DNA from: Terriglobia bacterium
GTDB taxonomy: Bacteria; Acidobacteriota; Terriglobia; Bryobacterales; UBA6623
DNA: 64,000 bases
Reading direction: 5' to 3'
Assembly (NCBI GenBank): GCA_009838515.1
Contig: VXRL01000002.1
Coordinates: forward strand, 83,248 to 147,247
How positions within the stretch are numbered: the stretch's first letter is position 1; the number at the start of each line of letters is the position of its first letter. Shown here one piece after another: positions 9,512 to 61,791 of the stretch. The notes under the pieces were generated by a model. That model was given only the letters and a program-made list of their open reading frames with translations, was not told the origin of the DNA and did not search any database. The position numbers and the translations under genes were made by a program.

Positions 9512-9979
9512 TCAAGGCGTCTCGGGGCGAAGCTCCTTTGGTCCGATGCTTCGAATGAAGAGCACGACTCGCCAGATCTCGTCATCTTGCAGCTGCTTGC
9601 CGAACGGTGGCATTTCGTGGCCGGCGCCGTCCCGGATCGACACAAAGATCTCGCCGTCCGTCGCTCCGTAACGCCACTCGTCCGGATCGCGCAGGCTCGG
9701 GGCCTCGAAGTCCGGATTCGCCTGGGCCCTGCCGTCGGCGCCGTGGCAGTATTGACACAGCCGCAGATAGGCGTTGCGGCCGGCCTTGACGGCCTCGGGC
9801 GCGTAAGCGACCGGGTTTTGCAAGGCCTTGGCCTGCTCTGCCGGCATGCGTTCCGCGGCCGCGCCAGGGGCGACCGCCAGAACCGCCCCGCAGGCGAGGC
9901 CGCACAGCGCCGCGCGCGCCTCGGTCCGCGTGAGACTAGTGCGGATTCGCCCTGCCATTCGCACAGACAGCATAGCCAC
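9512..9979 (-). CDS. class I c-type cytochrome, exported
   Basis: 155 aa with a signal peptide and a single heme motif CQYCHG. A distal Met region (GHEMPPFG) is present. It lies 47 nt upstream of the TPP enzyme on the same strand. Confidence 0.85.
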
Positions 9980-10140
9980 TCGAGGCTTGCGCTGCCAAGT
10001 TCGGGGCGAAAAAACGAAAGACGCTTCGAGGCGGTGGCCTCAGAGCGTCTTCGAAAGGGTGCCGGAGGGGTAAGTCAGGGGTCTTTGGTTGAGGATTAGC
10101 TTGCGTTGGTGGGGTTGTCCCCCCCGGCACTCATTACTCT

Positions 10141-10240
10141 ACTGGATTCCATAGGCCGTTGCAAGCGAATTTACAGATTTTTGTAGAATATTTTTCACGT
10201 TTGCTCATAACAGATTGAAAACAAATATGTTACGAGAGAT
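10141..10240 (-). promoter_or_regulatory. AT-rich intergenic island, probable promoter region of the cytochrome c / TPP operon
   Basis: About 100 bp that is far more AT-rich than anything nearby (for example ttacagatttttgtagaatatttttcacg). It lies upstream of the cytochrome c gene on the minus strand. I could not assign exact -35 or -10 boxes. Confidence 0.3.
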
Positions 10241-10285
10241 TCCAGCGCGCTCCGAGGGCACCGCAAAGAATCCGTGAATAGGGAT

Positions 10286-11077
10286 TTAGCGTAATGTCAG
10301 CGCTACGGGACGTATTGGCGAGCCCGTGGCGCCCCGTAGCCGCAGCGGTGATGCTGCGAAGACAAACTCGCAGACGCCTTCTGCGGAAAGGCTCTCGAGG
10401 TCCAGCGCCTCGATGATGTGAATGCCGCTCTCGACCAACAGGTGGACATGCACGGGCATGCTCGGGGCGGGCACGAACTCGAACGCGATCGTGTCGGAAC
10501 CGCCAGCGAACGCTCCCTTGGCGCTCAGCCAGCCCGCCGCCTCCCGGTTGACGCCAGGGCAGTGCAGGCCATTCACGTACCGGCCAGCATCGTGCCAGTA
10601 GCGCGCCCAACCCGTGCGCACCAGCACGATGTCCCCGGAGGAGACCGTGATGCCAGAGCGATCTGCCGCCCGCTCGAGGTGGTCGGCGCCTACGACGAAG
10701 TCATCGGGCAGCACTCCGAAGCCCTCGGTGGAGGCGACGTCGAGCAGGACTCCGCGGCGAAAGATCGGTGCGATGGTATCGACATGGTGCACTGACAGGC
10801 CGGTCGTGTACGACTGACAACCGACGGCATCAGCTCCGCCGAAGAGTTTTCCATTCAGGGAAAAGTGGCACAACGCGTCGATGTGCGTTCCCACATGCCC
10901 GCCGAGCGCGAGCGCATCTGCAGCCGCGCTGACTCCGTCGCGGGTTGTCTCCCCGTGAGCCTTGTTGAGCCCGTACAAGAACGGCGGATGGTTTGGGTGG
11001 TGGGGCATGCCGGGATAGTACGGCTGTGCCAGATCGATGACGCGCGACTCGTCTAGGCGCTGCAGCAAGTCCTGCAT
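10286..11077 (-). CDS. cyclase-family protein (kynurenine formamidase-like)
   Basis: 263 aa. It has the cyclase-family metal motif GGHVGTHIDALCHF. Confidence 0.8.
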   Translation of the reverse strand: MQDLLQRLDESRVIDLAQPYYPGMPHHPNHPPFLYGLNKAHGETTRDGVSAAADALALGGHVGTHIDALCHFSLNGKLFGGADAVGCQSYTTGLSVHHVDTIAPIFRRGVLLDVASTEGFGVLPDDFVVGADHLERAADRSGITVSSGDIVLVRTGWARYWHDAGRYVNGLHCPGVNREAAGWLSAKGAFAGGSDTIAFEFVPAPSMPVHVHLLVESGIHIIEALDLESLSAEGVCEFVFAASPLRLRGATGSPIRPVALTLR

Positions 11078-11369: not shown

Positions 11370-12110
11370 ATGAAGTGTAGTTTCACCGGCGAATCAGTTC
11401 CGACCGATAAGCTCTTTCTGCTCTACTACCCCCCCGATGCGGCCCACGAGACTTGGGAGAAGTCGACCTTTGCGGCCGCCCGCGCCCGCGAAGCCATCGG
11501 CGAGGCGCGTCAGTGTTTGGTCTCCTTTTTTCGGCGCTATGTGGCTACCGCGCGGAGCCTGCCGGGCCTGCTCATGGTCTTCGGCGGGCTTGCACTGTTA
11601 GGGATTTGGATTCATTCGGCGATGCGCGGCTGGGGCGAGCTAGGATTCGTCGTACGGTATTTGGCCCCCGCGGTCTTGCTGGTCGTGACGTTCGTCGGCA
11701 GTACTTGGGTTTCCGCGTTCCTGGGCCGCTGGAAGCTCTGGCGGCGAGGCTGCAAGGAGGCTGTCGCCAACGAGCTGGCCGCAGTATCCCGAGTCATGAG
11801 CGACTTGCCGGGGGATCCGGACGCCGAGCAGGCCGCCGCGATCATGCGTCGCGAGGTTCCAAGCATCATGTCGGAGGTGGCCTTTTTCGGCCAGAACTTC
11901 AAGGCGTTCACCTACATGGACTTCGTGCTGGGTCCGAAGCTGCGCAATCCGGCCGACCGCTCCGAGCTGCCGCAGGCGCACAGCCCGTATCGGGATGCCT
12001 ACTATGTGGGCGAAGTCGTTTACGACAATGCGCGGATGTTCCAGAAAGACAGGCGCACCACCAGCGATCCCCGCTTCGTGGGCAGCGGGGGCCGTCGCGG
12101 CGTGATCTAG
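11370..12110 (+). CDS. hypothetical membrane protein
   Basis: 246 aa from the ATG at 11370 (MKCSFTG...). It has two clear hydrophobic helices. I recognise no family. The track ORF starts at 11037. Confidence 0.5.
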   Translation: MKCSFTGESVPTDKLFLLYYPPDAAHETWEKSTFAAARAREAIGEARQCLVSFFRRYVATARSLPGLLMVFGGLALLGIWIHSAMRGWGELGFVVRYLAPAVLLVVTFVGSTWVSAFLGRWKLWRRGCKEAVANELAAVSRVMSDLPGDPDAEQAAAIMRREVPSIMSEVAFFGQNFKAFTYMDFVLGPKLRNPADRSELPQAHSPYRDAYYVGEVVYDNARMFQKDRRTTSDPRFVGSGGRRGVI

Positions 12111-13270
12111 CCCCGGCCGTCCGCGCGCAGGCTCTCGAGCGGATGTACGCGGTCCTTTAGCGGGAAGTCGATCACTTTGCGCTGAAGTTGCGAGGCATAC
12201 ATGCCTTGTGTCATTTCGACAGTCCAGCGTCCGGCACGCTCGCTGCAGGCGGGCTCGCCGCCTGTCTCGATCGCCCGCAGCAGGTCTTCCACCATCAGCG
12301 CGTTGGCCGTGAGGTGGCGCTCGCTGCCGAAACTGCGGTGCTCCGCCTCGATCAGCTCCCACTGCCGGTCGCGTCGCGGCACCCAAGCCGGAGATCGCAG
12401 GATGTAGGCCTCCGAGCTCTCGTCGTAGACCTCGTTGGGAAGGAAGATACAGCCCTGGGCGCCGAAGACGTGCGTTCCGAATCGCCACGGATGGGTCTGG
12501 CTGGACTCGTTCGAGGCGAAGTAGCCGTGCCGGCCCTGGCCGAACGAGAACATCGCGGACATCTGGCGGCCAGCGATGGGTCCGATCGGCTCGTTGGGCT
12601 TGCGCAAGTGGTCGAAGCTGAGTTCCTCGCCCTTGGACGTGATGTGCGAGAAGACCCATTCCGGATCTCCCAGCACGGCGCGCATCATGTCGAAGATGTG
12701 CGATCCGAGCACGACCAAGTCCTCGCCGCCGGCGCGATAGTCCTCCTTGCCCCGCCCCCTCACCTCGTGGATCTCGCCGATCTCGCCGGATTGGATCATT
12801 TCCAGGGCCTTGAGCGTGAACGGAGACCGCCGCATCTGGTGCGCCAGCTGGACCTTGACGCCGGCCTTGCGGATGGCATCCACCATTTGATCGGCGTCTT
12901 CCAGCGTGGCTGCGAAGGGCTTCTCGAGATACATGTGGCAGCCCGCTTGGGCGGCCGCAGTCACCATCGCGAGCCTCTGGTCGGTGTGGCGCGGGCAGAT
13001 GCTGACGATGTCGGGCTTCTCCCTCGCAAGCAGTTCTCGGTAATCGGCGTAGGCGTGCGCGGCGCCGGTTCGCTCCTGCGCCTTGGTGCGGCCGTCCTCG
13101 TCCGGGTCGGCGACTGCGACGACCTGCGTCTGGGGGAATACGGGCCAGACGTCCCCGATGCCGTGGCCGAAGTTGCCCCGGCCGGTGTGGCCGATCACAC
13201 CGACTCGGTAGCGGACCTGAGCGCTGAGTGGGACCGCGAGTGCGGTCGCGAGGAAATGCCTGCGCTGCAT
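12107..13270 (-). CDS. Gfo/Idh/MocA-family oxidoreductase with twin-arginine signal
   Basis: The N-terminus MQRRHFLATALAVPLSAQ looks like a Tat signal. It is followed by the Rossmann motif VGVIGHTGRGNFGHG. Confidence 0.85.
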   Translation of the reverse strand: MQRRHFLATALAVPLSAQVRYRVGVIGHTGRGNFGHGIGDVWPVFPQTQVVAVADPDEDGRTKAQERTGAAHAYADYRELLAREKPDIVSICPRHTDQRLAMVTAAAQAGCHMYLEKPFAATLEDADQMVDAIRKAGVKVQLAHQMRRSPFTLKALEMIQSGEIGEIHEVRGRGKEDYRAGGEDLVVLGSHIFDMMRAVLGDPEWVFSHITSKGEELSFDHLRKPNEPIGPIAGRQMSAMFSFGQGRHGYFASNESSQTHPWRFGTHVFGAQGCIFLPNEVYDESSEAYILRSPAWVPRRDRQWELIEAEHRSFGSERHLTANALMVEDLLRAIETGGEPACSERAGRWTVEMTQGMYASQLQRKVIDFPLKDRVHPLESLRADGRG

Positions 13271-13366: not shown

Positions 13367-13813
13367 CTACTCCGACACCTGCGTGAGCTCTTGGCCGCCC
13401 TCGACCCAGCCCTCGATCCCTCCGAACTGGATCTCGTTCTCGTAGCCGTTCTCTCTCAACATGGCCGCCGCACGGGAGGCCCTGCCACCGCGCCGTCAAT
13501 AGGCCACGATGGGCTTGTCGCGAGGCACTTCCGCCAAACGGCCCTCGAGTTCGTCGATCGGGATGTGGGTGTAGCCCTCGATCGCGCCGTCCTGCACCAG
13601 TTCCTCGGGCGTGCGCACGTCGAGCAAGAAGATGTCTTCCCCGCCGGCCAGCCGTGTCGATACGTTCCCGACGTCAAGTTCGGTCGGAGCGGCGACCTCG
13701 GTGGCCATCGCCTCGCCTTCCGATGAAGTGGCTGTGTCGGGGCTCTCGCCTCCGCCGCAGGCCGCGAGGGCCAGGGCGGCCGAGAAAGCCCCACATGCTA
13801 GTGCTCTTGTCAT
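13367..13813 (-). CDS. rhodanese-domain lipoprotein with in-frame TGA at the catalytic Cys position (candidate selenoprotein, or a nonsense pseudogene)
   Basis: The track ORF (13496-13813) ends ...DKPIVAY, then TGA at 13498-13496. The same frame continues RRGGRASRAAAMLRENGYENEIQFGGIEGWVEGGQELTQVSE to a TAG at 13369-13367. This completes a canonical rhodanese active-site loop [C/U]RRGGRA and C-terminal helix. The signal has lipobox LALAAC. AGGAGG lies upstream of the ATG at 13813. Confidence 0.6.
13463..13493 (-). promoter_or_regulatory. candidate SECIS-like hairpin(s) just downstream of the in-frame UGA
   Basis: The mRNA reads UGA CGGCGCGGUGGCAGGGCCUCCCGUGCGGCGGCC. Two mutually exclusive folds were found by hand. 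In the first, GCGCGG pairs with CCGUGC plus an inner GGC/GCC. In the second, GGCC-U-CC pairs with GG-C-GGCC around a CGUGC loop. Neither was energy-evaluated. Confidence 0.3.
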
Positions 13814-13825
13814 CTCGTCCTCCTG

Positions 13826-14719
13826 TTAGGCGTGCCAGCCGAGCGTGGACGCCTCTGGTATTCGCTGGACTAGGTCCGCCAACTCGTAACGGTCTTCCGC
13901 TCCGATCGTGAAGCAGTCGATGCAATCCAGAGCCAGCGCATGCTGCAGGGCCTCGCCCACGCGGTCGCGCAGGACGCCCTCGCCGAGAATCTTCATGCCG
14001 ATGACGCCCTTGCCCGCCGCCTTGATCTTGCATAGCTCTTCGATCACGGTGGCCGGGTCGGCGTCCATGCGGGCACCAACTGCGTTGACCCGGGCCAGGT
14101 CTACGTCGATGAATTCCTGTTTGTGGACTTGGCGCAGCGCGGGCAGCGAATGGCAGGAGATCCCGCGTGACTTGACGATGCCTTTCTGCTTGTACTCGTT
14201 GATCACGTCCATGGCGCCTTGGCGCTGGACCGGCCAGTCTTCCTCGCGCACCGCGTGCAACAGCAGCAGGTCGATGTAGTCGGTCTTGAGTTCCCTGCGG
14301 AAGCGCTCGATGTCCTCGCGCATGCCCTTCGCGGTCTTGGTGGTGGACTTGGTCATGATCACAACCTTCTCGCGAGGGATGTCTTCCAGGGCCCGCCTGA
14401 GGTGCGGGTGGCTGCCGTAGGCATCGGCGGTGTCCCAGAAGTTCAGCCCGCTGTCGAAGCCGAAGCGGTACAGGTCCGCCAAGCCCTCCACGCCCAGCTT
14501 GCGCGTTTGGTTGGACGCGCCTCGGAATCCACTAGTGCCGGTGCCCATGGCCAGCCGCGACGGCTTCAGGCCGTCCGGCCCCAGCGCCACGGTGTCGTAG
14601 GCATAGCGACGTGCCGGGTTCTCCGAGTAGCCGGTGACCGCCCCGAAGAGCTTGTGCTGCAGCGCCGCTAACGGAGCCCCTGCCAGCAAGGAATGGCGGA
14701 CGAAGTCTCGTCTTCTCAT
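13826..14719 (-). CDS. aldo/keto reductase with twin-arginine-type signal
   Basis: The N-terminus is MRRRDFVRHSLLAGAPLAAL. AKR motifs FWDTADAYG and the C-terminal region are present. Confidence 0.8.
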   Translation of the reverse strand: MRRRDFVRHSLLAGAPLAALQHKLFGAVTGYSENPARRYAYDTVALGPDGLKPSRLAMGTGTSGFRGASNQTRKLGVEGLADLYRFGFDSGLNFWDTADAYGSHPHLRRALEDIPREKVVIMTKSTTKTAKGMREDIERFRRELKTDYIDLLLLHAVREEDWPVQRQGAMDVINEYKQKGIVKSRGISCHSLPALRQVHKQEFIDVDLARVNAVGARMDADPATVIEELCKIKAAGKGVIGMKILGEGVLRDRVGEALQHALALDCIDCFTIGAEDRYELADLVQRIPEASTLGWHA

Positions 14720-21898: not shown

Positions 21899-24800
21899 GT
21901 GCCGGAATGGGTGCCTCAGAAATGCGCTGTGCTTGCCGAAAAACCCTCGGTCGCGCGCGACATTTCGAGGGTGCTGGGAGCGACCGGGAGGGGCAGCGGA
22001 TTCTTCCACGGCAACGGCGTGGTGGTGACGTGGGCGATCGGCCATCTGGTGCACCTGGCCGAGCCGCACCAGATCGATCCGGCATGGAAGGAGTGGCGGC
22101 GCGCGCTGCTGCCCATGCTCCCGGGCGACTGGCCGCTGATCGTCGACGAGGAGCGGGCAGACCAGTTCGGCGTCGTCAAGAAGATCCTCAACAGCCCGAA
22201 GATCGATCGGGTGGTCTGCGCCACCGACGCCGGCCGCGAGGGCGAGCTGATCTTCCGCCAGATATATGCGGCCGCGGGCTCGTCCAAGCCCGTGGACCGG
22301 CTTTGGATTTCGTCGCTCACGCAGGATGCGATCCGGCGCGGCTTCCAGAACTTGCAACCGTCCAGTGGCTTCGACGATTTGGCGGCCGCCGCGCGGGCGA
22401 GAAGCCGCGCCGACTGGCTCGTCGGCATGAATCTCACGCGGGCCTACACGCTGGACCACGCCGAGAGCGAAGTGCTCTCGGTAGGGCGGGTGCAGACTCC
22501 AACTCTGGCCATGCTGGTGGAACGCGAGATTGCCATACGGGACTTCGTGCCCGAGGACTACTTGGAGGTCCACGCCGAATTCGATGCAGGCGAGGGACGG
22601 CGCTATCGTGGCGTCTACTTCCGGCTCGAGAAGGGCAAGCGGCAGCAGCGGCTTCCGGCTGACGGCAAGGCAGCGGCGGAGATCGTTGCGAGGGCTCGGG
22701 CCGGCCGCGCCGACATCGTCTCGGTCAAGCGGACCCGGCATCGCCAGCCGCCGCCGCGCCTGTATGACCTCACAGAGCTCCAGCGGCACGCCAACCGCTT
22801 GTACGGCTTCAGCGCCGAGCGCACCCTCGGCATAGCGCAGGCGCTGTACGAGAAGCACAAGGCGATCACATATCCCCGCACCGATAGCCGCTTCCTGTCC
22901 AGCGACGTTGCCAGCCAAGCGCCGCAGATCGCGTCGCGCGTGGCGCGCCGCTATGACGAATCCTTGCTCGCGCCCGGCACTGGCACCGAACCGCTGCCCG
23001 GTCGGTTCGTGAACAATGCCAAGGTCACCGACCACCACGCCATCATTCCGACCGGTTCGGGCCGCGGCGTGCGCGATGGGTCGGCCGAAGCGAAGGTGCT
23101 TGACCTGATCAATCGCCGCTTCCTGCAGGCGTGGCACTCGGAGCACCGCTATTCGTCCACGACCTTGATCACCCGCGTCGTGCACAAGGCCGATGAGGAT
23201 CAGTACCTGTCGAGCGGCAAGGCCATTGACGACCCCGGCTGGAAGCTGCTTGACGTCGCGCCGACGAGCAAGCGCGAGCCCAAGTCCGAGCAGGATCTGC
23301 CGAGCGGCTTGCGTCAGGGCCAGAGGGTGGAGGTGCAAGCGGCCGAGGCAGTCAAGAAGAGGACCAAGCCGCCGCCGCGGTTCACGGACGCAACCTTGCT
23401 GACGGCCATGGAGTCGGCGGGCAAGACGCTTGACAGCCAAGCGCTCTCTGATGCCATGAAGGAGCGCGGGATCGGCACGCCTGCGACCCGTGCCTCGATC
23501 ATCGAAACTCTCCTGAAGCGTTCCTACGTCGAGCGCGAGAAAAAGACCCTGCGAGCCACCGAAAAGGGGATCCGCCTGCTCGACCTGGTTCATCCCAAGG
23601 TCCGCAGCCCCGAAATGACCGGAGAGTGGGAGGCCAAGCTGCGCAGCATCGAGCGTGGCGACGGCGGCTACGCCAAGTTCATGCGGAGCATTGAGGAGTT
23701 CGTGCGCGATGTTGTCGGCGATTCTGGCAACGGTTCAGGCTCCGCAAGCGACCGCGACGCATCCCGCTCTCAGCTGGTGCCGAGCCCGCAGCAGCCCGCA
23801 GCCCGCACCCGGCAGCACCCGCAGCCGAAACAGCGGAAAGCGCTCGCAGCCGACCAAGCTCAAAGGCCCGCGGGCGCGCCCGATGCGGAATCGAGCGTAC
23901 CGAGCGGACCCTCCGAGGAAAGAGCGCCCGCCGCTGCCAAGCCGGCACTCCAGCGGCACGGCTTCGGCTCGCCGCCGCCCGATCAGCCGGCCTCGCCGCT
24001 ACCCTCGCAAGCCGGGCCGAAGCCGGTTTCCGTCTCCCCGGAACGGCTGAACGACCTGCTGCGATCGCGCTTCGGGCATGCCTCCTTCCGCCCCAACCAA
24101 GAGGCGGTCTGCCGGGATGTCGTAGCCGGCAGGGACGTGCTGCTCGTCATGCCCACTGGAGCCGGCAAGTCGCTCTGCTACCAGCTGCCCGGAATCGCCC
24201 GCGGCGACACGACCATCGTGATCAGTCCTCTGATCGCACTGATGGAGGACCAGACGGACAAGCTGCGCCAGCAGGGGTTCAATGCCGAGCGGATTCACTC
24301 TGGCCGCGACCGGCTTGAATCGCGGCGCGTGTGCAAGGAATATGTCGCAGGCGAGCTGGATTTTCTCTACATCGCTCCCGAGCGCTTGGCCGTGCCGGGC
24401 TTTCCCGAATTCTTGGCCAAGCGCACGCCAGCTCTGGTCGCCATTGACGAGGCGCATTGTATCTCCATGTGGGGCCATGACTTCCGCCCGGAATACAGAC
24501 GCTTGCGCGAGCGCTTGCCGTCCCTGCGCCCGGCCCCGGTGATAGCGCTGACGGCGACGGCCACCCCCATCGTCCAGCGCGACGTGATCGACCAATTGGG
24601 CTTGGGGGATTGCAAGCGCTCGATTCATGGGTTCCGGCGCGAGAACCTGCAGATCGAACTCGTGGAACTCGTGCCGTCGCTCCGGCCCGGTGCCTTGGCA
24701 AGGCTGATGCTTGATGACTCGCGGCGGCCGGCGATTGTCTACGCCCCGACCCGCAAGGCCGCCGAGGAGCAGGCCGAGCTCTTGCAGTCGAGCATGACCG

Positions 24801-26104
24801 CAGCTGCCTATCACGCCGGCATGCTTGCCGAGGACCGCGACCGGGTGCAGGCCGCGTTCCTGCGGGGCGACCTTGAAGTCATCGTCGCTACGATCGCTTT
24901 CGGCATGGGCATCGACAAGCCGGATGTGCGCACGGTTGTCCATACCGGGCTGCCCGGTTCGATCGAGAGCTACTACCAAGAGATCGGCCGAGCGGGCCGC
25001 GACGGACTGCCCTCCAAGGCAGTCCTGCTGCACTCGTGGGCGGACCGCAAGACGCACGAATTCTTCTTGGACCGGGATTATCCCGAGCCGCCCAAGCTCG
25101 AGGCCATGTTCAACCGCCTCAGTTCGGCCAAGCTGCCGATCAGCGACTTGGCCGCGGACTTTTCCGGCGATTCCGAACAGTTCGAGAAGGCGCTCGAAAA
25201 GCTGTGGATGCACGGTGGCGTGAGAATCGACGCGGACGATCAGGCCACCAAGGGCGACGGTAGGTGGCGGGCGAGCTATGACCAGCAGCGCGCCTACAAG
25301 ATCCGGCAGCTAGATCAGGTGAGCGAATTCACCCGGTCCAACCAGTGCCGCATGCTCGACTTGGTGCGGCACTTCGACGACGTCGAGGATTCGCTCAAGC
25401 CCTGCCAGCATTGCGACAACTGTGATGCGGAGACCTGCACTGTCAAGACGTTCCGGCCGCCCACGCCGCAGGAATCGGCTGTGCTGGACACGATTCGACA
25501 GGCCCTGCGCGAGCGTGACGGACAGTCGGTCGGCAAGGTCTTTCGCGATTGCGTGGAGCCGAACAAGGTGGATCGAAAGACGTTTGAGCGGCTGGTAGAC
25601 GGTCTGGAGCGGGCGGATCTGGCACGCGTCGCCCCCGATTCGTTTGTCAACGCGCAGGGTGAGTCGATCCAGTTTCGCCGTATCTCGCTTACGCCCGAGG
25701 GTCGCAGTGCGGCCAGCCTCGGCAGCCGCATTAGGTTGCCCGAGGAGGGCGCTGGATTGAAGCCCGCGAAGCGGGCATCGCGTCCGAGAAAGGGCGCTAA
25801 GGCGGGCTCTGCAGGAAAGCGCAACGGTAGTCGCGCCACGAAGCAGTTTGGCTTGGGAGAGGCCCCGCCTCGCGACGATTCTGACGAGCTGATCTTCTCC
25901 GCGTTGCGGGCTTGGCGAAAGACCGAAGCGGGAAGACGCCGGATGCCCGCGTTTCGCGTGTTTCCCGATCGCACCTTGAACGCCTTGGTCGATCGCAAGC
26001 CTTCGAACGAAGCGGAACTGTTAGACGTGCCCGGCGTCGGGCCTACGCTCGCGAAGAAGTACGGGGAGCAGCTGATCCGGGTCATTCGCAGTTCCGGCGT
26101 TTGA
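21899..26104 (+). CDS. fusion protein: DNA topoisomerase III (type IA) N-terminal module plus RecQ helicase C-terminal module
   Basis: The topoisomerase part has VLAEKPSVARDI, ATDAGREGE (as I recall for B. subtilis TopB) and catalytic-Tyr motif ITYPRTDSR. A linker of about 105 aa (nt ~23720-24040) is rich in P, A, S and Q. The RecQ part has FRPNQ, MPTGAGKSLCYQLP, DEAHCISMWGHDFRPEY and YYQEIGRAGRDG. It also has a Zn cluster (C...CQHCDNCD) and a C-terminal HRDC domain. One open frame of 1401 aa. Confidence 0.85.
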   Translation: MPEWVPQKCAVLAEKPSVARDISRVLGATGRGSGFFHGNGVVVTWAIGHLVHLAEPHQIDPAWKEWRRALLPMLPGDWPLIVDEERADQFGVVKKILNSPKIDRVVCATDAGREGELIFRQIYAAAGSSKPVDRLWISSLTQDAIRRGFQNLQPSSGFDDLAAAARARSRADWLVGMNLTRAYTLDHAESEVLSVGRVQTPTLAMLVEREIAIRDFVPEDYLEVHAEFDAGEGRRYRGVYFRLEKGKRQQRLPADGKAAAEIVARARAGRADIVSVKRTRHRQPPPRLYDLTELQRHANRLYGFSAERTLGIAQALYEKHKAITYPRTDSRFLSSDVASQAPQIASRVARRYDESLLAPGTGTEPLPGRFVNNAKVTDHHAIIPTGSGRGVRDGSAEAKVLDLINRRFLQAWHSEHRYSSTTLITRVVHKADEDQYLSSGKAIDDPGWKLLDVAPTSKREPKSEQDLPSGLRQGQRVEVQAAEAVKKRTKPPPRFTDATLLTAMESAGKTLDSQALSDAMKERGIGTPATRASIIETLLKRSYVEREKKTLRATEKGIRLLDLVHPKVRSPEMTGEWEAKLRSIERGDGGYAKFMRSIEEFVRDVVGDSGNGSGSASDRDASRSQLVPSPQQPAARTRQHPQPKQRKALAADQAQRPAGAPDAESSVPSGPSEERAPAAAKPALQRHGFGSPPPDQPASPLPSQAGPKPVSVSPERLNDLLRSRFGHASFRPNQEAVCRDVVAGRDVLLVMPTGAGKSLCYQLPGIARGDTTIVISPLIALMEDQTDKLRQQGFNAERIHSGRDRLESRRVCKEYVAGELDFLYIAPERLAVPGFPEFLAKRTPALVAIDEAHCISMWGHDFRPEYRRLRERLPSLRPAPVIALTATATPIVQRDVIDQLGLGDCKRSIHGFRRENLQIELVELVPSLRPGALARLMLDDSRRPAIVYAPTRKAAEEQAELLQSSMTAAAYHAGMLAEDRDRVQAAFLRGDLEVIVATIAFGMGIDKPDVRTVVHTGLPGSIESYYQEIGRAGRDGLPSKAVLLHSWADRKTHEFFLDRDYPEPPKLEAMFNRLSSAKLPISDLAADFSGDSEQFEKALEKLWMHGGVRIDADDQATKGDGRWRASYDQQRAYKIRQLDQVSEFTRSNQCRMLDLVRHFDDVEDSLKPCQHCDNCDAETCTVKTFRPPTPQESAVLDTIRQALRERDGQSVGKVFRDCVEPNKVDRKTFERLVDGLERADLARVAPDSFVNAQGESIQFRRISLTPEGRSAASLGSRIRLPEEGAGLKPAKRASRPRKGAKAGSAGKRNGSRATKQFGLGEAPPRDDSDELIFSALRAWRKTEAGRRRMPAFRVFPDRTLNALVDRKPSNEAELLDVPGVGPTLAKKYGEQLIRVIRSSGV

Positions 26105-42712: not shown

Positions 42713-43219
42713 TCAGCGCTGGTTTCCGACGACCTCTACCGCAATGGCACCGGCAGTGTGGAGAGACTCTTGGATTCCTGCCGTGTCTCGTGCTCCCGCA
42801 ACTTGCAGCACCACGCCTTGGTCCGGCAGGACCGGCACGGGAACGCGCTCGCGCCTGCGGATCAGTCCAGACTCCCAGAGCAGGGCGGCGAAAATCCCCA
42901 TGACCGCCCCAGCCATGGTTGTCTCGAATGTCACCACGCCGGTGGCCCAGCCCGAGTTGATCGGCATCCCGCCAGTAATCAGCGGGTAGTCGCGCTGCGC
43001 CCAGTAGACTAGCGCGGTGGCTCCGCCGCCCACGGTGATCGCCGAGAGCACGGCAATCAGCGACATCCGGCTGCGCCTGGCCAGCGGAGCCGGCTCCAGT
43101 TCGAGCGGTCGCAACGAGTAGATCTCCATTGCGCTGGCAGGCACTCCCAGCGCGGCAAGGCCGGCGATCGCCGCCGCGGCGTCCTCGCCCCGTGAGAACT
43201 CAGCGTGCACGTACTCCAT
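42713..43219 (-). CDS. DUF3341 / ActD-like membrane subunit of an ACIII-type complex
   Basis: 168 aa from the ATG at 43219. It has YPLITGGMP and TFETTMAGAVMGIFAAL, matching the DUF3341 pattern. It overlaps the end of the NrfD gene by 20 nt. Confidence 0.7.
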   Translation of the reverse strand: MEYVHAEFSRGEDAAAAIAGLAALGVPASAMEIYSLRPLELEPAPLARRSRMSLIAVLSAITVGGGATALVYWAQRDYPLITGGMPINSGWATGVVTFETTMAGAVMGIFAALLWESGLIRRRERVPVPVLPDQGVVLQVAGARDTAGIQESLHTAGAIAVEVVGNQR

Positions 43220-44528
43220 CGTCGTACTCCCAGATGGCGATGATCGGAAACGCCTTGACGAATAGCAGGTACAGCAGCACCATCGCCGCGAACGTCCCCG
43301 CTGTGATCGAGAGTTCGATCCAGCTCGGCGCATAGCTGCCCGAGGCTGCGGCTAGCGGCGGGGTTGATAGCGGCGGGATCACGATCAGGAACCGTTCGAG
43401 CCACATCCCTACGAGCACTGCCGCGCTGCTGACGGCTATGGTCGGGATACTGCGCAACCTCGAGATCCCCAGCAGCACGAGCGGAACGACGAAGTTGCAG
43501 GCCACCATGGTCCAAAAGAGCATGCCGTAAAGGCCGTGTTCCCGGATTTGGAACACACGGATCTCGGAAGGCAGGTTGCCGTACCAAGTGGTGAGGTGCT
43601 CCGAGAACGTGAAGTAGCCCCAGATCAGGCTCATCAACAGCAGCAGCTTGCTCAGGTTCACGAAATGGACTTCGCGAAGGTACCCCTCCAAGCCCATCAG
43701 CTTGCGCAATGCCGCCATCACCAGCACCAGCGCCGCGATGCCGCTGAAGATCGCGCCGACCACGAAATAGGGCGCAAAGATCGTGTTGTGCCAGGTCGGC
43801 ATGACCGACATCGAGAAATCATAGGCGACCACCGAATGCACTGAAACCGCGATCGCCAGGATCACAACAGCCATCAGCTTCATGGACCGCTCCAAGGCCT
43901 GCCATTGCCGGTCCGAGCCTGTCCATCCGAGCGACAGGGCCCGATAGATGCGGCGCTTCGCTCCTTTGTTGTGCCTTGCCAGCTCGGCCAGATCCGGGAT
44001 CAGCGGCAGGTAGAGATAGATGACGCTGCCCGCTAGGTACGTCAGGATCGCGGTCAGGTCCCAGAACAGCGGCGAGCGAAAGTTGGGCCACAGCAGGCGC
44101 TCGTTGGGATAGGGCAGCATCCAGTAGAAGAACCACGGGCGGCTGATGTGGATCAGGGGAAACAAGCCACCGATCATCAGGCAGAAGACGGTAATCGCCT
44201 CGGCGGCGCGGGTGACGGGCTTGCGCCATTCCGCCCCGGTCAATCGCAGGATCGCGGAGATCAGCGTGCCGGCATGCGAAATGCCGATCCAGAAGACGAA
44301 GTTGACGATGTAGAAGCCCCAGTAGACCGGCCGCCGAACACCCGTGCTGCCGAAACCGTTGACGATCTGGTAGCCCCATGCGAACAGAGCCCAGGCCACG
44401 ATCGTGCCGCATGCGGCAACACTTACCAGATACAGCCCGCTGGCGCCGCGCATGCGCCCGAGCAAGTCGTCGCGGACGCTTCCGTGGCTCGAGACCGCAA
44501 TCGGTGTTGTGCTCTGAATTGCGTCCAT
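43200..44528 (-). CDS. NrfD/PsrC-family polytopic quinone-interacting membrane subunit (ActC-like)
   Basis: 442 aa with about 10 TM helices. It has the NrfD-type sequence pattern and lies directly downstream of the FeS subunit. Confidence 0.85.
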   Translation of the reverse strand: MDAIQSTTPIAVSSHGSVRDDLLGRMRGASGLYLVSVAACGTIVAWALFAWGYQIVNGFGSTGVRRPVYWGFYIVNFVFWIGISHAGTLISAILRLTGAEWRKPVTRAAEAITVFCLMIGGLFPLIHISRPWFFYWMLPYPNERLLWPNFRSPLFWDLTAILTYLAGSVIYLYLPLIPDLAELARHNKGAKRRIYRALSLGWTGSDRQWQALERSMKLMAVVILAIAVSVHSVVAYDFSMSVMPTWHNTIFAPYFVVGAIFSGIAALVLVMAALRKLMGLEGYLREVHFVNLSKLLLLMSLIWGYFTFSEHLTTWYGNLPSEIRVFQIREHGLYGMLFWTMVACNFVVPLVLLGISRLRSIPTIAVSSAAVLVGMWLERFLIVIPPLSTPPLAAASGSYAPSWIELSITAGTFAAMVLLYLLFVKAFPIIAIWEYDDGVRAR

Positions 44529-44561
44529 CGCTGCAAATGCGCCGCTAGCAGGGTTGCGGCG

Positions 44562-45290
44562 CTAGTCGGCCTTCTCTAGATAGAACACGCGCGGCTTGGT
44601 GCCGAGACTCTCGAGCAGCTGTCCGGACCGCCCGCTGCCGAGCTGCCTGGCGACCTTGCTGTCAGGATCGGTCATGTCGCCGAACACCATGGCCTCGGCC
44701 GGACAGGACTGCACGCAGGCCGGCTGTACGTCGCCGTCGGCCAGCTCGCGTCCTTGGGCGTCCGCGTCGAGCTTGGCGCGCTTGATCTTGTGGGCGCAGA
44801 ACGTGCATTTCTCCACAACCCCGGACGGTCGGATGGAAACGTCGGGGTTGAGCTGCAGATTCAACGGCTCGGCCCATTCCGGCGCGAACCAATTGAAGAA
44901 GCGAACCGTGTAGGGACAGTTGTTGGCGCAATAGCGCGTGCCGATACAGCGGTTGTAGATCTGGACGTTGAGGCCCTCGGCGTTCTGATAGGTGGCGTTG
45001 ACCGGACAGACCGGCTCGCAGGGGGCCTCGTCGCACTGCTGGCACATCACAGGCCGGTACTTGACCTTAATGTCGGGAAACTCGCCCTCGTAGTAGCGGT
45101 CGATGCGGATCCAGTGCTTCGTGCGGCCCATAGCCGCTTGGTCCTCGCCGGCGGTCGGGACGTTGTTCTCCGAGGCGCACGCCACGACACACGCCTCGCA
45201 GCCGGTGCAGCGGTCCAGGTCGATCGCCATCGCCCACTGGGGCGTCCGCTCCGCCCCTTGCTCGGTTTGCTCAGCGGTTTGCTCGGCCAT
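44562..45290 (-). CDS. 4Fe-4S ferredoxin-type subunit (ActB2 / PsrB-like)
   Basis: It has four Cys clusters: CTGCEACVVAC, CQQCDEAPCEPVCP, CIGTRYCANNCP and CTFC. GGAGGA lies upstream of the ATG at 45290. Confidence 0.9.
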   Translation of the reverse strand: MAEQTAEQTEQGAERTPQWAMAIDLDRCTGCEACVVACASENNVPTAGEDQAAMGRTKHWIRIDRYYEGEFPDIKVKYRPVMCQQCDEAPCEPVCPVNATYQNAEGLNVQIYNRCIGTRYCANNCPYTVRFFNWFAPEWAEPLNLQLNPDVSIRPSGVVEKCTFCAHKIKRAKLDADAQGRELADGDVQPACVQSCPAEAMVFGDMTDPDSKVARQLGSGRSGQLLESLGTKPRVFYLEKAD

Positions 45291-45304
45291 CGAGTTCCTC
45301 CGTT

Positions 45305-47446
45305 CTAGACCCTGTGTGGCGGCAAGTCCCGATCCTGCCGCGAGAACTGCACGAGCCGCGCGCCCCCCGCGATCTTCTCGAGGCGGATCGGCGTCGGACC
45401 CATGGCCGGGCAACCGGTCTTTTCGTCACGCGCATTGCCCACGACGACCATGGGGTTTGCACCCCGCCCGGAGGCGTAACGCCCGTAGGATGCGTGCCCT
45501 TGGCCCACTGCCATGGACACGACCCCGGGAATGGCCGCGGGATTGACGTAAACAGGGGCTTCCAAGGCGCCGTACTCGGATCGGATCCGCACGTTGTCAC
45601 CGTTGACGAGGCCAAGCCTTTCCGCGGTTGCCGGATCCATCTCTACCGGCAGCCCCCAGAGGGCGCTCGATGTCGGATCGGGCAATTCTTGCAGCCACGG
45701 GCGGTTAGCGCCGCTTCCAGAGCCGAATTGCGGCGACTCGTAGGCCTGAAACATCACGCCTTCCTGCTTGGCGGCTATTTCGAACGTACCCAACGTTCCC
45801 GGCGTCGCTGGCGGCTTCCCGGACGGCTGTCCTTGCCAGCCTCCGTCCCTGAGGGTCGTTGCCTCGAAGTCCGACGCTGAAGTCTCCGATCCGGCCGATT
45901 CGACCGCGGAGTGCAGCGTGCTCACCGCTTGGCCTACCGTAAGTTCCTCGAACGGCCGTTCCGCGGCCTCCGCCAACTCGGACAAGGCGGTCGCGATCGG
46001 TCGCGAATCATACAGCGGCGCGACAAACTCCCCCGCCGCCGCAATCGACGGGGACGGCGATACCGCGGGCACTTCGAGCGCAGCCTGCTCCAGCGGATCG
46101 TGATCGGGAAGGATGAGGTCCGCGAATGCGGAAGTGTCGTCCAAGAAGGAAGAGAAGCTGATCACCGTCTGAGCTGCGGCCAGAGCGCCTTGGCTAGCGG
46201 GGGCGTTGTAGGCCGGATTCACGCCATCGACCAGCACAACAGCGGCTTGCTCCAAGCGCTCGGACCAATCCTGGGAGAAGCGAGGTTGCCGGGCGAGCAC
46301 GCCCAGAGGGTCGGCCGGTGGGATCACGCCCCCCGGCTTGCCCACGCAGCCGAGCAGCCAGTTCAGGGCTAACGCGGCCGCGACCGCGTCGGCGGAGTTC
46401 CGGCGTACCATCGAAGCGCCGGCCACCACCACGGGCGCGGACGCTTGGGCCAGTTCGGACGCCGTCTGCCGGATCGTCTCTGCGGGAACGCCGGCTGCCC
46501 CCGCGGCCTTTTCGAGATCGACGTCAGCGAAGATCGATACGACGCTCGCCGGCGTGTCGGCGATTTGCTCGCCGAGGAGCACGTGTCCGATGGCCGAAGC
46601 TAGGGCGAGTTCTCCGCCAGGCCAGACAGGCAGCCAGCGATCGGCGTTCCAAGCCGTGAGCGAGAATCTGGATTCGGCGTGGATCAGGCGCCCGCGCAAC
46701 TCGCGACGCCCCTGGCGCATGTGCCCGTAGCGCCTCGAATACAGCACCGGCGACGCCCACCCGCCAAGGAAATCTGCTCCTATCGACAACACTAGGGAGG
46801 AGTCTTGGATCTCATAGAGCGGCAGGCCGCTTCGTCCGAATACACGTTCGGACGAAGCGCGCTCGGCGGCGAAGTCACCGACGCCGATGCTGGTAGCAGG
46901 CGGGGCGCCGACAGCCTCCAGAAAGCGGGCGATATTCTCCGAACGCACGCTTTCGCGAGCTCTTGCCAGGAAAAGGATCCTGCCGGGATCAGCGGCCGCC
47001 AATGCCCCGGCGGCCTCTGTAATCGCGTCATCCCATGAAATGGCTTCGAACTGGCCGGAGGCCCGCGGGCCGACCCGCTTCAGCGGGCCGCGCAGCCGAT
47101 CAGGGTTGTACAAGGACTGCAGGGAAGCGTGGCCGCGGGCGCACAGCCGCCCGCCGCTGACCGGATCGAGGGGGTTGCCCTCGAGTTTCTTGACAGCCGC
47201 GATCTTCTGGCGGACAAGTTCCCCGTCAACCTCGATCTCGCGTTCGGAAGCCATCACTCGGGCTAGCGTGCCGCAGGCCGCTGAGCACTCGCCGCAGACG
47301 CTTGGGTGCCACTGCTCGACGCCGACCGGGACGCTCTCCTCGGGCACGAGGAGCGGGATGATTTCCTCTGCTTGGCGGCCACACGCGCCAGTAACCGCGC
47401 CGCCAGAAGCGGTCCCGACCAACTTGACAAAGTTGCGCCGATCCAT
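45305..47446 (-). CDS. molybdopterin-oxidoreductase-fold subunit with Tat signal (ActB1-like)
   Basis: The N-terminus is MDRRNFVKLVGTASGGAVTGACG. An N-terminal FeS motif reads CGECSAACG. It is 713 aa with the Mo-bisPGD fold and has no in-frame stop. Confidence 0.85.
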   Translation of the reverse strand: MDRRNFVKLVGTASGGAVTGACGRQAEEIIPLLVPEESVPVGVEQWHPSVCGECSAACGTLARVMASEREIEVDGELVRQKIAAVKKLEGNPLDPVSGGRLCARGHASLQSLYNPDRLRGPLKRVGPRASGQFEAISWDDAITEAAGALAAADPGRILFLARARESVRSENIARFLEAVGAPPATSIGVGDFAAERASSERVFGRSGLPLYEIQDSSLVLSIGADFLGGWASPVLYSRRYGHMRQGRRELRGRLIHAESRFSLTAWNADRWLPVWPGGELALASAIGHVLLGEQIADTPASVVSIFADVDLEKAAGAAGVPAETIRQTASELAQASAPVVVAGASMVRRNSADAVAAALALNWLLGCVGKPGGVIPPADPLGVLARQPRFSQDWSERLEQAAVVLVDGVNPAYNAPASQGALAAAQTVISFSSFLDDTSAFADLILPDHDPLEQAALEVPAVSPSPSIAAAGEFVAPLYDSRPIATALSELAEAAERPFEELTVGQAVSTLHSAVESAGSETSASDFEATTLRDGGWQGQPSGKPPATPGTLGTFEIAAKQEGVMFQAYESPQFGSGSGANRPWLQELPDPTSSALWGLPVEMDPATAERLGLVNGDNVRIRSEYGALEAPVYVNPAAIPGVVSMAVGQGHASYGRYASGRGANPMVVVGNARDEKTGCPAMGPTPIRLEKIAGGARLVQFSRQDRDLPPHRV

Positions 47447-47560
47447 GCTAGCTAGCCTCGGCCGAAACGCTTTGCCCGGGCTCGAGCGGCGTACGCGGCG
47501 TAGCCGCTGGGACGTCCCGGCGCATTCGGGCTGGCACGTTCGATTGCATCACCGGCTGGC

Positions 47561-48034
47561 CTAGTAGTGACATGCCAGGCAGTCGTCGGTCGCGGAATTG
47601 TCGCGGTGGCACTGAATGCAGGAGCCCATGGTGTGCGTCACCGCCTTGACCGCGACCGTCATGGACGCCACGTCGCCGTGGCACTGAGAGCAAGCGATTT
47701 CCGCTCTGGCGTGCGGCGCGTGGCGAAACTGTACCGCGGCCGTCTTGGCAAATCCGTAGATGCGCTCCCAGGGCACCTCGTGCTTGCGCTCCCAGTATTC
47801 GCTCAGGCGCACCACCTCGGGTAAGTCCGTCGCGATGAACTGGTGGCACAGCATGCACTTCCGAATTGACGGCAGTCCGGCCGAGTCGCGCGATGTCGCG
47901 CCTTCGTGGCAGTCGGTGCATTGCATGCTGGCCTTCTCGATGTGGGCGGTATGCGAAAAGCCGATCGGCTGCTCTGCTGCCGACGCGGTCTGAACGGCCA
48001 GAAGGAGCAACGCTGAGTGCATCGCAAGGGACAC
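47561..48034 (-). CDS. pentaheme c-type cytochrome (ActA / cytochrome c3-c7 family)
   Basis: It has a signal peptide plus five CxxCH motifs: CTDCH, CMLCH, CSQCH, CIQCH and CLACH. Confidence 0.9.
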   Translation of the reverse strand: MSLAMHSALLLLAVQTASAAEQPIGFSHTAHIEKASMQCTDCHEGATSRDSAGLPSIRKCMLCHQFIATDLPEVVRLSEYWERKHEVPWERIYGFAKTAAVQFRHAPHARAEIACSQCHGDVASMTVAVKAVTHTMGSCIQCHRDNSATDDCLACHY

Positions 48035-61717: not shown

Positions 61718-61791
61718 GGCGCGGTAGCCAAGTTGGTAAGGCTGGTCCGTGAAACGATTGATCGCCGGTTCGAACCCGGCTCGCGCCTCCA
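61718..61791 (+). tRNA. tRNA-like gene with encoded CCA but an aberrant anticodon arm (identity undetermined, possibly GAA/Phe)
   Basis: The acceptor stem GGCGCGG/TCGCGCC has 7 bp including one G-U. The D arm is GCC-AAGTTGGTAA-GGC. The T arm GCCGG-TTCGAAC-CCGGC is perfect, followed by a T discriminator and CCA. The segment GGTCCGTGAAACGATTG cannot form a 5-bp stem with a 7-nt loop. The best fold is a 4-bp stem (two G-U) with an 8-nt loop CGUGAAAC. Confidence 0.5.

Follow-up and report, generated by a model that had tools for sequence, protein, structure and literature searches.

Why does the gene for a predicted exported rhodanese carry an in-frame stop codon exactly where its catalytic cysteine (Cys) should stand? 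The gene lies on the minus strand of a 64-kb stretch of Terriglobia DNA (contig VXRL01000002.1, positions 83,248 to 147,247), which is referred to as a whole as the window, and window coordinates are used unless another locus is named. Read directly from the sequence, the open reading frame starts with an ATG at 13813–13811, runs to ...DKPIVAY and reaches a TGA at 13498–13496; past this TGA, the same frame continues for 42 further codons (RRGGRASRAAAMLRENGYENEIQFGGIEGWVEGGQELTQVSE) to a TAG at 13369–13367. A first-pass annotation of the window had described the frame in these terms, which proved accurate, and had proposed an exported selenoprotein rhodanese, with a nonsense pseudogene as the alternative. 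Our analysis supports the former, and we assign a probability of roughly 0.88 to the reading that the UGA is recoded to selenocysteine (Sec) in an exported, single-domain rhodanese. This assessment draws on a Sec/Cys pair at the catalytic column, conservation of the TGA, selection at the level of translation downstream of it, and a conserved, co-varying hairpin that is specific to the TGA genes.

13367–13813, minus strand: complete predicted selenoprotein gene, 148 codons (105 + UGA + 42), ending in the TAG at 13369–13367
13496–13498, minus strand: UGA, codon 106, predicted to encode selenocysteine and located in the catalytic-Cys column of the Sec/Cys alignment
13481–13498, minus strand: active-site loop U-R-R-G-G-R, a six-residue rhodanese-type loop of the form [C/U]X4R
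13403–13645, minus strand: rhodanese domain, residues 57–137, extending across the UGA, from Pfam PF00581 and PDB matches
13757–13813, minus strand: signal peptide with lipobox L16-A17-A18-C19, a lipoprotein signal predicted from the sequence pattern
13819–13824, minus strand: AGGAGG, Shine-Dalgarno-like, 5 nt 5′ of the ATG, by direct reading of the sequence

When the stop is replaced by Cys, the resulting product of 148 residues scores 53.1 bits against Pfam PF00581 (cut-off 22.2, E = 4.7e-14), and its sequence matches in the PDB have E = 4e-13. Aligned with solved rhodanese domains, residue 106 takes the position of their catalytic Cys, and in PDB entry 3NT6, the C43S/C531S mutant of Npsr, a Ser occupies the same column. 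That the TGA takes the place of the catalytic Cys of a rhodanese loop, as the first-pass annotation had claimed, is a point on which the Pfam, PDB and orthologue alignments agree. A structure model was made of a Cys-form relative, P0019, which shares 63% identity with the window protein. The model adopts a rhodanese fold, with a predicted local distance difference test score of at least 94 over the domain; a strand formed by residues 105–109 ends at Cys109, the helix 113–124 comes next, and the top fold matches in the PDB are rhodanese domains (root-mean-square deviation 1.2–2.5 Å, 34–45% identity). As modelled, the helix-strand-helix segment that follows the catalytic residue is an integral part of the rhodanese fold, and a truncated product of 105 residues, in which both the active-site loop and this segment are lost, would be non-functional.

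At the other end of the protein, the N-terminal stretch MTRALACGAFSAALALAAC bears the lipobox L-A-A-C with Cys19, the codon of which occupies 13759–13757. Written as MTRALACGAFSAALA-LAAC, the N-terminus displays the lipoprotein pattern of a basic n-region, a hydrophobic h-region and a lipobox of the form [LVI][ASTG][GA]C, and the lipobox Cys is nearly invariant in an alignment of 22 homologues. The lipoprotein call is a pattern match and is in line with the signal (LALAAC) reported in the first pass; the good Shine-Dalgarno sequence reported there is likewise seen, at 13824–13819. We infer lipidation through Cys19 from this pattern, and the mature full-length product is expected at about 13 kDa.

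The stop codon across orthologues

Because the same TGA stands in six assemblies of this organism that are independent of one another (L001–L006, from Logan, NCBI and ENA), it is not a sequencing error. For codon comparison, DNA was fetched from one genome per species. In an alignment of orthologues, a check which the first-pass annotation had named, all members of the main Bryobacterales clade (35/35, from 35 species-level Bryobacterales/Terriglobia genomes) show TGA at the catalytic column, and the orthologues of the sister group show TGC. The TGA allele is carried by the complete chromosomes OZ241997.1, OZ242276.1, OZ252099.1 and OX638379.1, by the 3.27-Mb contig ERZ25069580:ctg105708 and by the metagenome-assembled genome GCA_009845805.1; OZ241991.1 and OZ253444.1 are examples of Cys-form genomes. 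Further TGA rhodanese genes occur in other lineages, namely in a basal member of the Bryobacterales (L060), in Verrucomicrobiales (L062), in Multivoraceae (L084) and in Vicinamibacteria/Marinacidobacterium. Past the TGA, the frame stays open for 41–50 codons in the 35 Bryobacterales genomes, where the downstream peptide is conserved, and for 39–50 codons when the other orthologues are included. In a protein search, about 90 clusters of 94–113 residues were retrieved, with identities down to about 57%, and every truncated cluster inspected (about 30) ends in ...KPIV[AT]Y; the same search also gave full-length homologues of ~150 residues, in which the sequence reads ...KPIVTY-C-MRGGRASRAA....

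These data bear first on the possibility of a nonsense pseudogene or an assembly error, in which a TGC or TGT had become TGA. One base change is enough to turn TGC into TGA, but the allele is not a lone nonsense mutation, since TGA is kept in 35 species and in other lineages. The codon is found in six assemblies, in species with proteins as far apart as ~57% identity and in other phyla; it is accompanied by purifying selection downstream, by a hairpin specific to TGA genes and by a conserved operon context. The pseudogene that the first-pass annotation had offered as its alternative is effectively refuted by these observations.

Downstream of the UGA, residues that are invariant among the 35 orthologues are encoded by many synonymous codons: five for Leu+13, six for Arg+14, and four each for Gly+17, Gly+25 and Gly+26. 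Synonymous variation beneath invariant residues implies that the sequence past the UGA is translated and under selection. This is difficult to reconcile with a UGA that acts as a true stop, in which case the gene would encode a truncated lipoprotein of 105 residues and the hairpin would be a regulatory or terminator-type element, or the 42 codons would be translated separately. Such a product, of 105–108 residues, is what gene callers and NCBI annotate, and more genes in the window stop at TGA than at either of the other stop codons. Nevertheless, the in-frame codons that follow are conserved at the amino-acid level with synonymous variation, the downstream part completes the rhodanese domain (the Pfam match runs across the TGA, and the fold needs the helix-strand-helix), and the stop is always located at the one catalytic column. 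Moreover, the 42 codons contain a single ATG (Met+12), with no Shine-Dalgarno-like sequence noted ahead of it, and no U-run follows the hairpin. Genuine termination at this UGA is in our view very improbable. Of the 41 other genes called in the window, 19 end in TGA, so that the standard code applies and the recoding would be local.

Hairpins downstream of the UGA

In the Sec forms, synonymous codon choice is suspended over one short stretch of the gene. Codons +6 to +11 (GCC TCC CGT GCG GCG GCC) have ~0 bits of synonymous diversity in the Sec forms, as opposed to 1–1.7 bits, with mixed codons, in the Cys forms (two codons with an unshared majority residue being excluded), while codons +3 to +5 and the remaining gene vary normally in the Sec forms. 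Within this stretch the otherwise rare codon CGT is invariant in the Sec forms, which is explained by its supplying the loop U of a hairpin, H2. An RNA element thus overlaps the coding sequence in the TGA genes only. A second hairpin, H1, occupies part of the same sequence.

13463–13481, minus strand: H2, the predicted selenocysteine insertion sequence (SECIS) hairpin, with stem GGCC(U)CC / GG(C)GGCC and pentaloop CGUGC at 13474–13470
13470–13493, minus strand: H1, an alternative hairpin that is mutually exclusive with H2, −11.8 kcal/mol, Bryobacterales only

H2 spans 15–33 nt past the UGA, with the loop starting at 21 nt and the loop G-U at 23–24 nt; its stem has 6 bp with one mismatch in the window, and 5–7 bp across the TGA genes. 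The published consensus for bacterial SECIS elements comprises a loop of 3–9 nt whose first positions include G followed by U or G, a spacing of 16–37 nt, a stem of 4–16 bp and a minimum free energy of −7.5 kcal/mol or lower (PMC13188914). H2 agrees with this consensus in its stem, its CGUGC loop, its spacing of 21 nt and its energy of −10.1 kcal/mol, and is predicted to be a bacterial SECIS.

The evidence that H2 is maintained comes from a comparison that covers all lineages, with 54 distinct TGA sequences. In every one of these, the four core pairs that flank stem position 19/29 are paired, and the innermost pair is C-G in 31, G-C in 22 and A-U in 1. The covariation score of H2 is 0.217 compared with 0.086 in shuffled alignments, of which 0/500 scored as high, and it exceeds all slid controls; RNAalifold recovers the H2 core de novo. 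At least 4/5 core pairs are present in 59/59 TGA genes, with CGUGC (57) or CGGGC (2) as the loop. By contrast, the full 5/5 stem is found in 0/28 Cys-codon homologues, as is the CGUGC loop; these genes mostly use the preferred codon CGC, which gives CGCGC at the loop. Hairpin conservation and co-variation, which the first-pass annotation had also suggested looking for, are accordingly present and specific to the TGA genes.

In E. coli fdhF, the SECIS is likewise a hairpin in the coding region just past the UGA, and its small apical loop also contains a G-U, at about 20–21 nt after the UGA compared with 23–24 nt in H2. The two elements differ in that H2 has a CGUGC instead of a GGUC loop, lacks the bulged U of the fdhF type, and has a shorter stem of almost pure G+C. 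Recognition of H2 by SelB is proposed.

The first-pass annotation had placed hairpins at 13463–13493, one of them with a G-U in the apical loop. Both hairpins exist, and the one with the G-U loop is conserved and co-varies, but the stronger, overlapping one is not the conserved element. Provided that the UGA encodes Sec, the functional SECIS could in principle be H1, or a larger structure, instead of H2. For the Bryobacterales set, RNAalifold gives H1 as the consensus; H1 is also slightly the more stable of the two and could account for frozen nucleotides close to the UGA for which H2 offers no explanation. On the other hand, two of its pairs are unpaired in 23/54 sequences, its covariation score is 0.056 compared with 0.045 in shuffles, and the distance from the UGA to its loop, 11 nt, falls short of the consensus range of 16–37 nt. 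A CGC codon would strengthen H1 relative to the invariant CGT, the U of which is placed in the loop by H2, and H1 leaves the frozen nucleotides 27–33 unexplained. We therefore regard H1, which is not conserved beyond the Bryobacterales and lies too close to the UGA, as improbable in this role and have rejected it as the SECIS in favour of H2. An additional lower stem, formed by the UGA region or an upstream GGCC with downstream sequence, was also rejected: no consistent register exists across clades, and RNAalifold gives it no support.

The frozen nucleotides next to the UGA deserve separate mention. All Sec-form Bryobacterales (35/35, L007–L042) have TAT as the codon ahead of the UGA, the counterpart of which is TAC in 14/15 Cys forms, and CGG CGC is frozen at codons +1 and +2 in the Bryobacterales (the region around 13493–13501 in the window). 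These codons are unaccounted for by H2 and coincide with the 5′ strand of H1; they may reflect stop-codon context or the competing H1.

Two side observations concern the other TGA lineages. In Vicinamibacteria and Candidatus Marinacidobacterium, each locus has two adjacent rhodanese genes, both with TGA at the catalytic column.

About 9700–10650 in each of L064–L066, L068, L070, L072, L074, L075, L080, L081 and L086: tandem TGA rhodanese loci

The paired genes read ..ILTT-U-MVGPRAAR.. and ..ILTA-U-QGGGRAAR.., each with its own GCCGCG-CGUGC-CGCGGC hairpin, and look like tandem selenoprotein paralogues. The second observation concerns L060 (10304; Bryobacterales OZ252029.1), where a rough neighbour-joining tree puts a TGA gene basal to the Cys-form clade. 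Its hairpin sequence, GCC UCC CGU GCG, is that of the main Sec clade, and its placement suggests either more than one switch between Cys and Sec or descent of the Cys forms from a Sec form.

The probable residue at the UGA and its predicted role

Several observations weigh against selenocysteine at this codon. As regards the hairpin, the main Bryobacterales clade has a U-C mismatch at stem position 19/29, where two of its members and the other phyla have G-C and another subclade has U-G. The competing H1 is slightly more stable than H2 (−11.8 vs −10.1 kcal/mol), the covariation of H2 is mostly between clades and so represents few independent events, and the folding energy is no better than that of G+C-rich shuffles (z = +0.71 and +0.59; −0.44 for H2). 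An RNAfold-type check, another suggestion of the first pass, consequently lends no support, and single-sequence folding was rejected as SECIS evidence because G+C-rich shuffles fold equally well; with such unremarkable z-scores, the evidence for the hairpin is comparative, not thermodynamic. As regards the machinery, neither the 64-kb window nor the ~10 kb past its low-coordinate end nor the ~1.6 Mb of flanking DNA that was fetched yielded selA, selB, selD or tRNA-Sec. ARAGORN and Rfam identified two tRNAs only in the window, neither of them for Sec, and ARAGORN found no tRNA-Sec in any of the fetched loci. Searches of all fetched DNA by tblastn, with E. coli SelA, SelB and SelD as queries, gave no credible match, and Pfam annotation of the whole window plus 10 kb past one end returned no sel genes. 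Nor did the window or flanks contain a second selenoprotein gene, as filters for in-frame TGA, G+C at third codon positions and hairpins left only rhodaneses. In favour of Sec, some Acidobacteria are reported to have selenoproteins (PMC1794560).

The UGA might instead be recoded to another amino acid. One route would be a tRNA(Cys) that resembles tRNA-Sec, has a UCA anticodon and is supplied by a SelB-type factor; another would be an acidobacterial suppressor allo-tRNA that inserts Cys or some other residue. Precedents exist, as selC* tRNA(Cys) with a second selB is known in Deltaproteobacteria and other phyla, and allo-tRNAs occur in Acidobacteria (PMC5389517); the reported distribution of selC*, however, covers Firmicutes, Thermodesulfobacteria, Nitrospirae and Proteobacteria, and not Acidobacteria (PMC5389517). 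The window does contain an irregular tRNA-like gene at 61718–61791, but this gene shows no UCA anticodon. If Cys were the residue required, TGC would suffice, as in the sister clade, and keeping both TGA and the hairpin in 59 genes is only sensible if the product differs from Cys. Recoding to a residue other than Sec has, in our estimation, a very low probability.

The tRNA-like gene is worth describing in its own right. Located on the plus strand, it is reported by ARAGORN as ‘tRNA-???’ with a two-base anticodon and matches the Rfam tRNA model with 43 bits. On visual inspection, its acceptor and T arms appear normal, but the anticodon arm is irregular. Irregular tRNAs have been reported in Acidobacteria (PMC5389517).

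If the UGA is read as Sec, the protein joins a class that has been predicted before. The statement in the first-pass annotation that Sec-containing rhodaneses had been predicted in metagenomic surveys is correct: three such sequences were described in the Sargasso Sea selenoproteome (PMC1088965), entries such as ‘Sulfurtransferase COG0607’ in the Global Ocean Sampling selenoproteome (PMC2398784), and a 2026 review distinguishes five rhodanese ‘forms’, two of them with a UxxG motif (PMC13188914; PMC9312934). Like the window protein, the UxxG forms 2 and 4 (COG0607/PspE type or PF00581) have a single rhodanese domain in which Sec replaces the catalytic Cys. The motif of the window protein, U-R-R-G, fits UxxG, and the protein may belong to one of these two forms, which are represented by MBM9537886.1 and MCY3690685.1. 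The catalogued Sec-rhodaneses have abundant Cys homologues, were found by the logic of Sec/Cys pairs and hairpins, and come from marine metagenomic sources. The clade described here differs from these in its lipoprotein signal and in the gene order aldo/keto reductase, rhodanese, Gfo/Idh/MocA oxidoreductase, which is found in 35 Bryobacterales species. NCBIfam models do not capture the protein: it scores 35.2 and 29.6 bits against the PspE models NF007627 and TIGR02981 (thresholds 102 and 126.3), 23 bits against the GlpE model (102), and 24.4 bits against NF041203 (115), which represents rhodanese_LYCAU, or ‘form 3’, with a CxU motif. Unlike CxU, the motif here, Y-U-R-R-G, has no Cys two residues ahead of U. 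In the NCBIfam scan, no model captured this rhodanese clade.

The E. coli thiosulfate:cyanide sulfurtransferases PspE (periplasmic) and GlpE (cytoplasmic) are likely mechanistic analogues. Both are small, single-domain proteins in which the nucleophile heads a six-residue loop. PspE is exported, as the window protein is predicted to be, but is not known to have a lipobox; both enzymes use Cys where the window protein would use Sec. The closest solved structures, by sequence as well as by fold, are those of the persulfide-handling enzymes Shewanella Npsr (PDB code 3NTA), Bacillus CoADR-RHD (3ICR) and a Burkholderia persulfide dioxygenase-rhodanese fusion, PRF (5VE3), in all of which the catalytic Cys aligns with U106. 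The rhodanese domains of these proteins are cytoplasmic and fused to flavoenzymes or dioxygenases, whereas the window protein is stand-alone, with predicted export and Sec.

Based on these similarities, a sequence of events can be proposed. The UGA at 13498–13496 would be bypassed as a stop, with H2 acting as a bacterial SECIS that recruits SelB and Sec-tRNA(Sec) to the ribosome at this codon. Sec106 would be inserted and the remaining 42 codons translated up to the TAG, after which the protein would be exported and lipid-anchored via Cys19, facing the periplasm. The selenolate at the head of the loop U-R-R-G-G-R could then take sulfane sulfur from a thiosulfate, persulfide or polysulfide donor, and from the resulting Se-S intermediate the sulfur would be handed to an acceptor. 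In this scheme, SelB dependence, selenium incorporation and the nature of the substrate are presumed; the role in sulfur transfer would follow by analogy with PspE and GlpE and with the rhodanese domains of Npsr, CoADR-RHD and PRF. Our confidence in any specific substrate is much lower than in recoding to Sec.

Neighbouring genes and annotation

The rhodanese gene and the two genes that flank it are on one strand.

13826–14719, minus strand: upstream aldo/keto reductase gene with a twin-arginine signal (MRRRDF..), its stop 12 nt before the rhodanese ATG
12107–13270, minus strand: Gfo/Idh/MocA oxidoreductase gene with a twin-arginine signal (MQRRHF..), the usual downstream neighbour, 96 nt after the rhodanese gene

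The reductase gene is found immediately upstream in 35/35 Sec-form Bryobacterales loci and was not detected at any Cys-form locus. The twin-arginine motifs suggest that the flanking enzymes are exported in a cofactor-loaded state by the twin-arginine translocation (Tat) pathway; an NCBIfam scan of the neighbours indicated no specific function. Any functional link of the rhodanese to these oxidoreductases is presumed. As a speculative extension, which we consider unlikely, the rhodanese could be a lipid-anchored periplasmic selenoenzyme, co-transcribed and coupled with the Tat-exported oxidoreductases, that serves in a selenium-based sulfane-sulfur/redox relay instead of as a PspE-like detoxifier, with the coupling conserved across the 35 Bryobacterales species and with H1 tuning the balance between Sec insertion and termination.

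In public annotation, close orthologues are cut short at the stop codon. NCBI entries MDE0108075.1 and MDE0104337.1 (clusters P0007/P0113 and P0086, from Bryobacterales metagenome-assembled genomes) are ‘hypothetical proteins’ of 105–108 residues, and a cluster look-up for published Sec-rhodanese representatives returned only these two. The Bryobacterales orthologues in databases are generally truncated proteins of 94–113 residues, called ‘hypothetical protein’ where named, and these entries most likely represent full-length selenoenzymes. If so, a whole clade is mis-annotated; the gene is carried by at least 35 Bryobacterales species and by relatives in Vicinamibacteria, Verrucomicrobiales and Multivoraceae. 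No new category is opened by this gene, because Sec-rhodaneses have been predicted since 2005 and are catalogued as the UxxG type; it is very probably a further, well-supported member of that predicted class. Its signature, a G+C stem of 5–7 bp with a CGUGC loop that starts 21 nt past the UGA, is clean enough to be used for re-annotation, and could help to find the rules of SelB binding outside Proteobacteria and Firmicutes. The clade also provides a natural experiment, in which the peptide G-R-A-S-R-A-A is written with hairpin-forming codons in the Sec genes and with free codons in the Cys genes. Judging from record names, many of the 35 Bryobacterales genomes appear to be sponge-associated.

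Two other loci in the window are noted in passing. On the plus strand, 21899–26104 is a reading frame of 1401 residues with Toprim, bacterial topoisomerase, DEAD/Helicase_C, RecQ zinc-binding and HRDC domains, the product of which is a topoisomerase-RecQ helicase fusion. On the minus strand, a cluster at about 43200–48034 encodes ActD, an NrfD-type membrane subunit, a 4Fe-4S protein, a molybdopterin-family subunit and a multihaem cytochrome c, and resembles alternative complex III.

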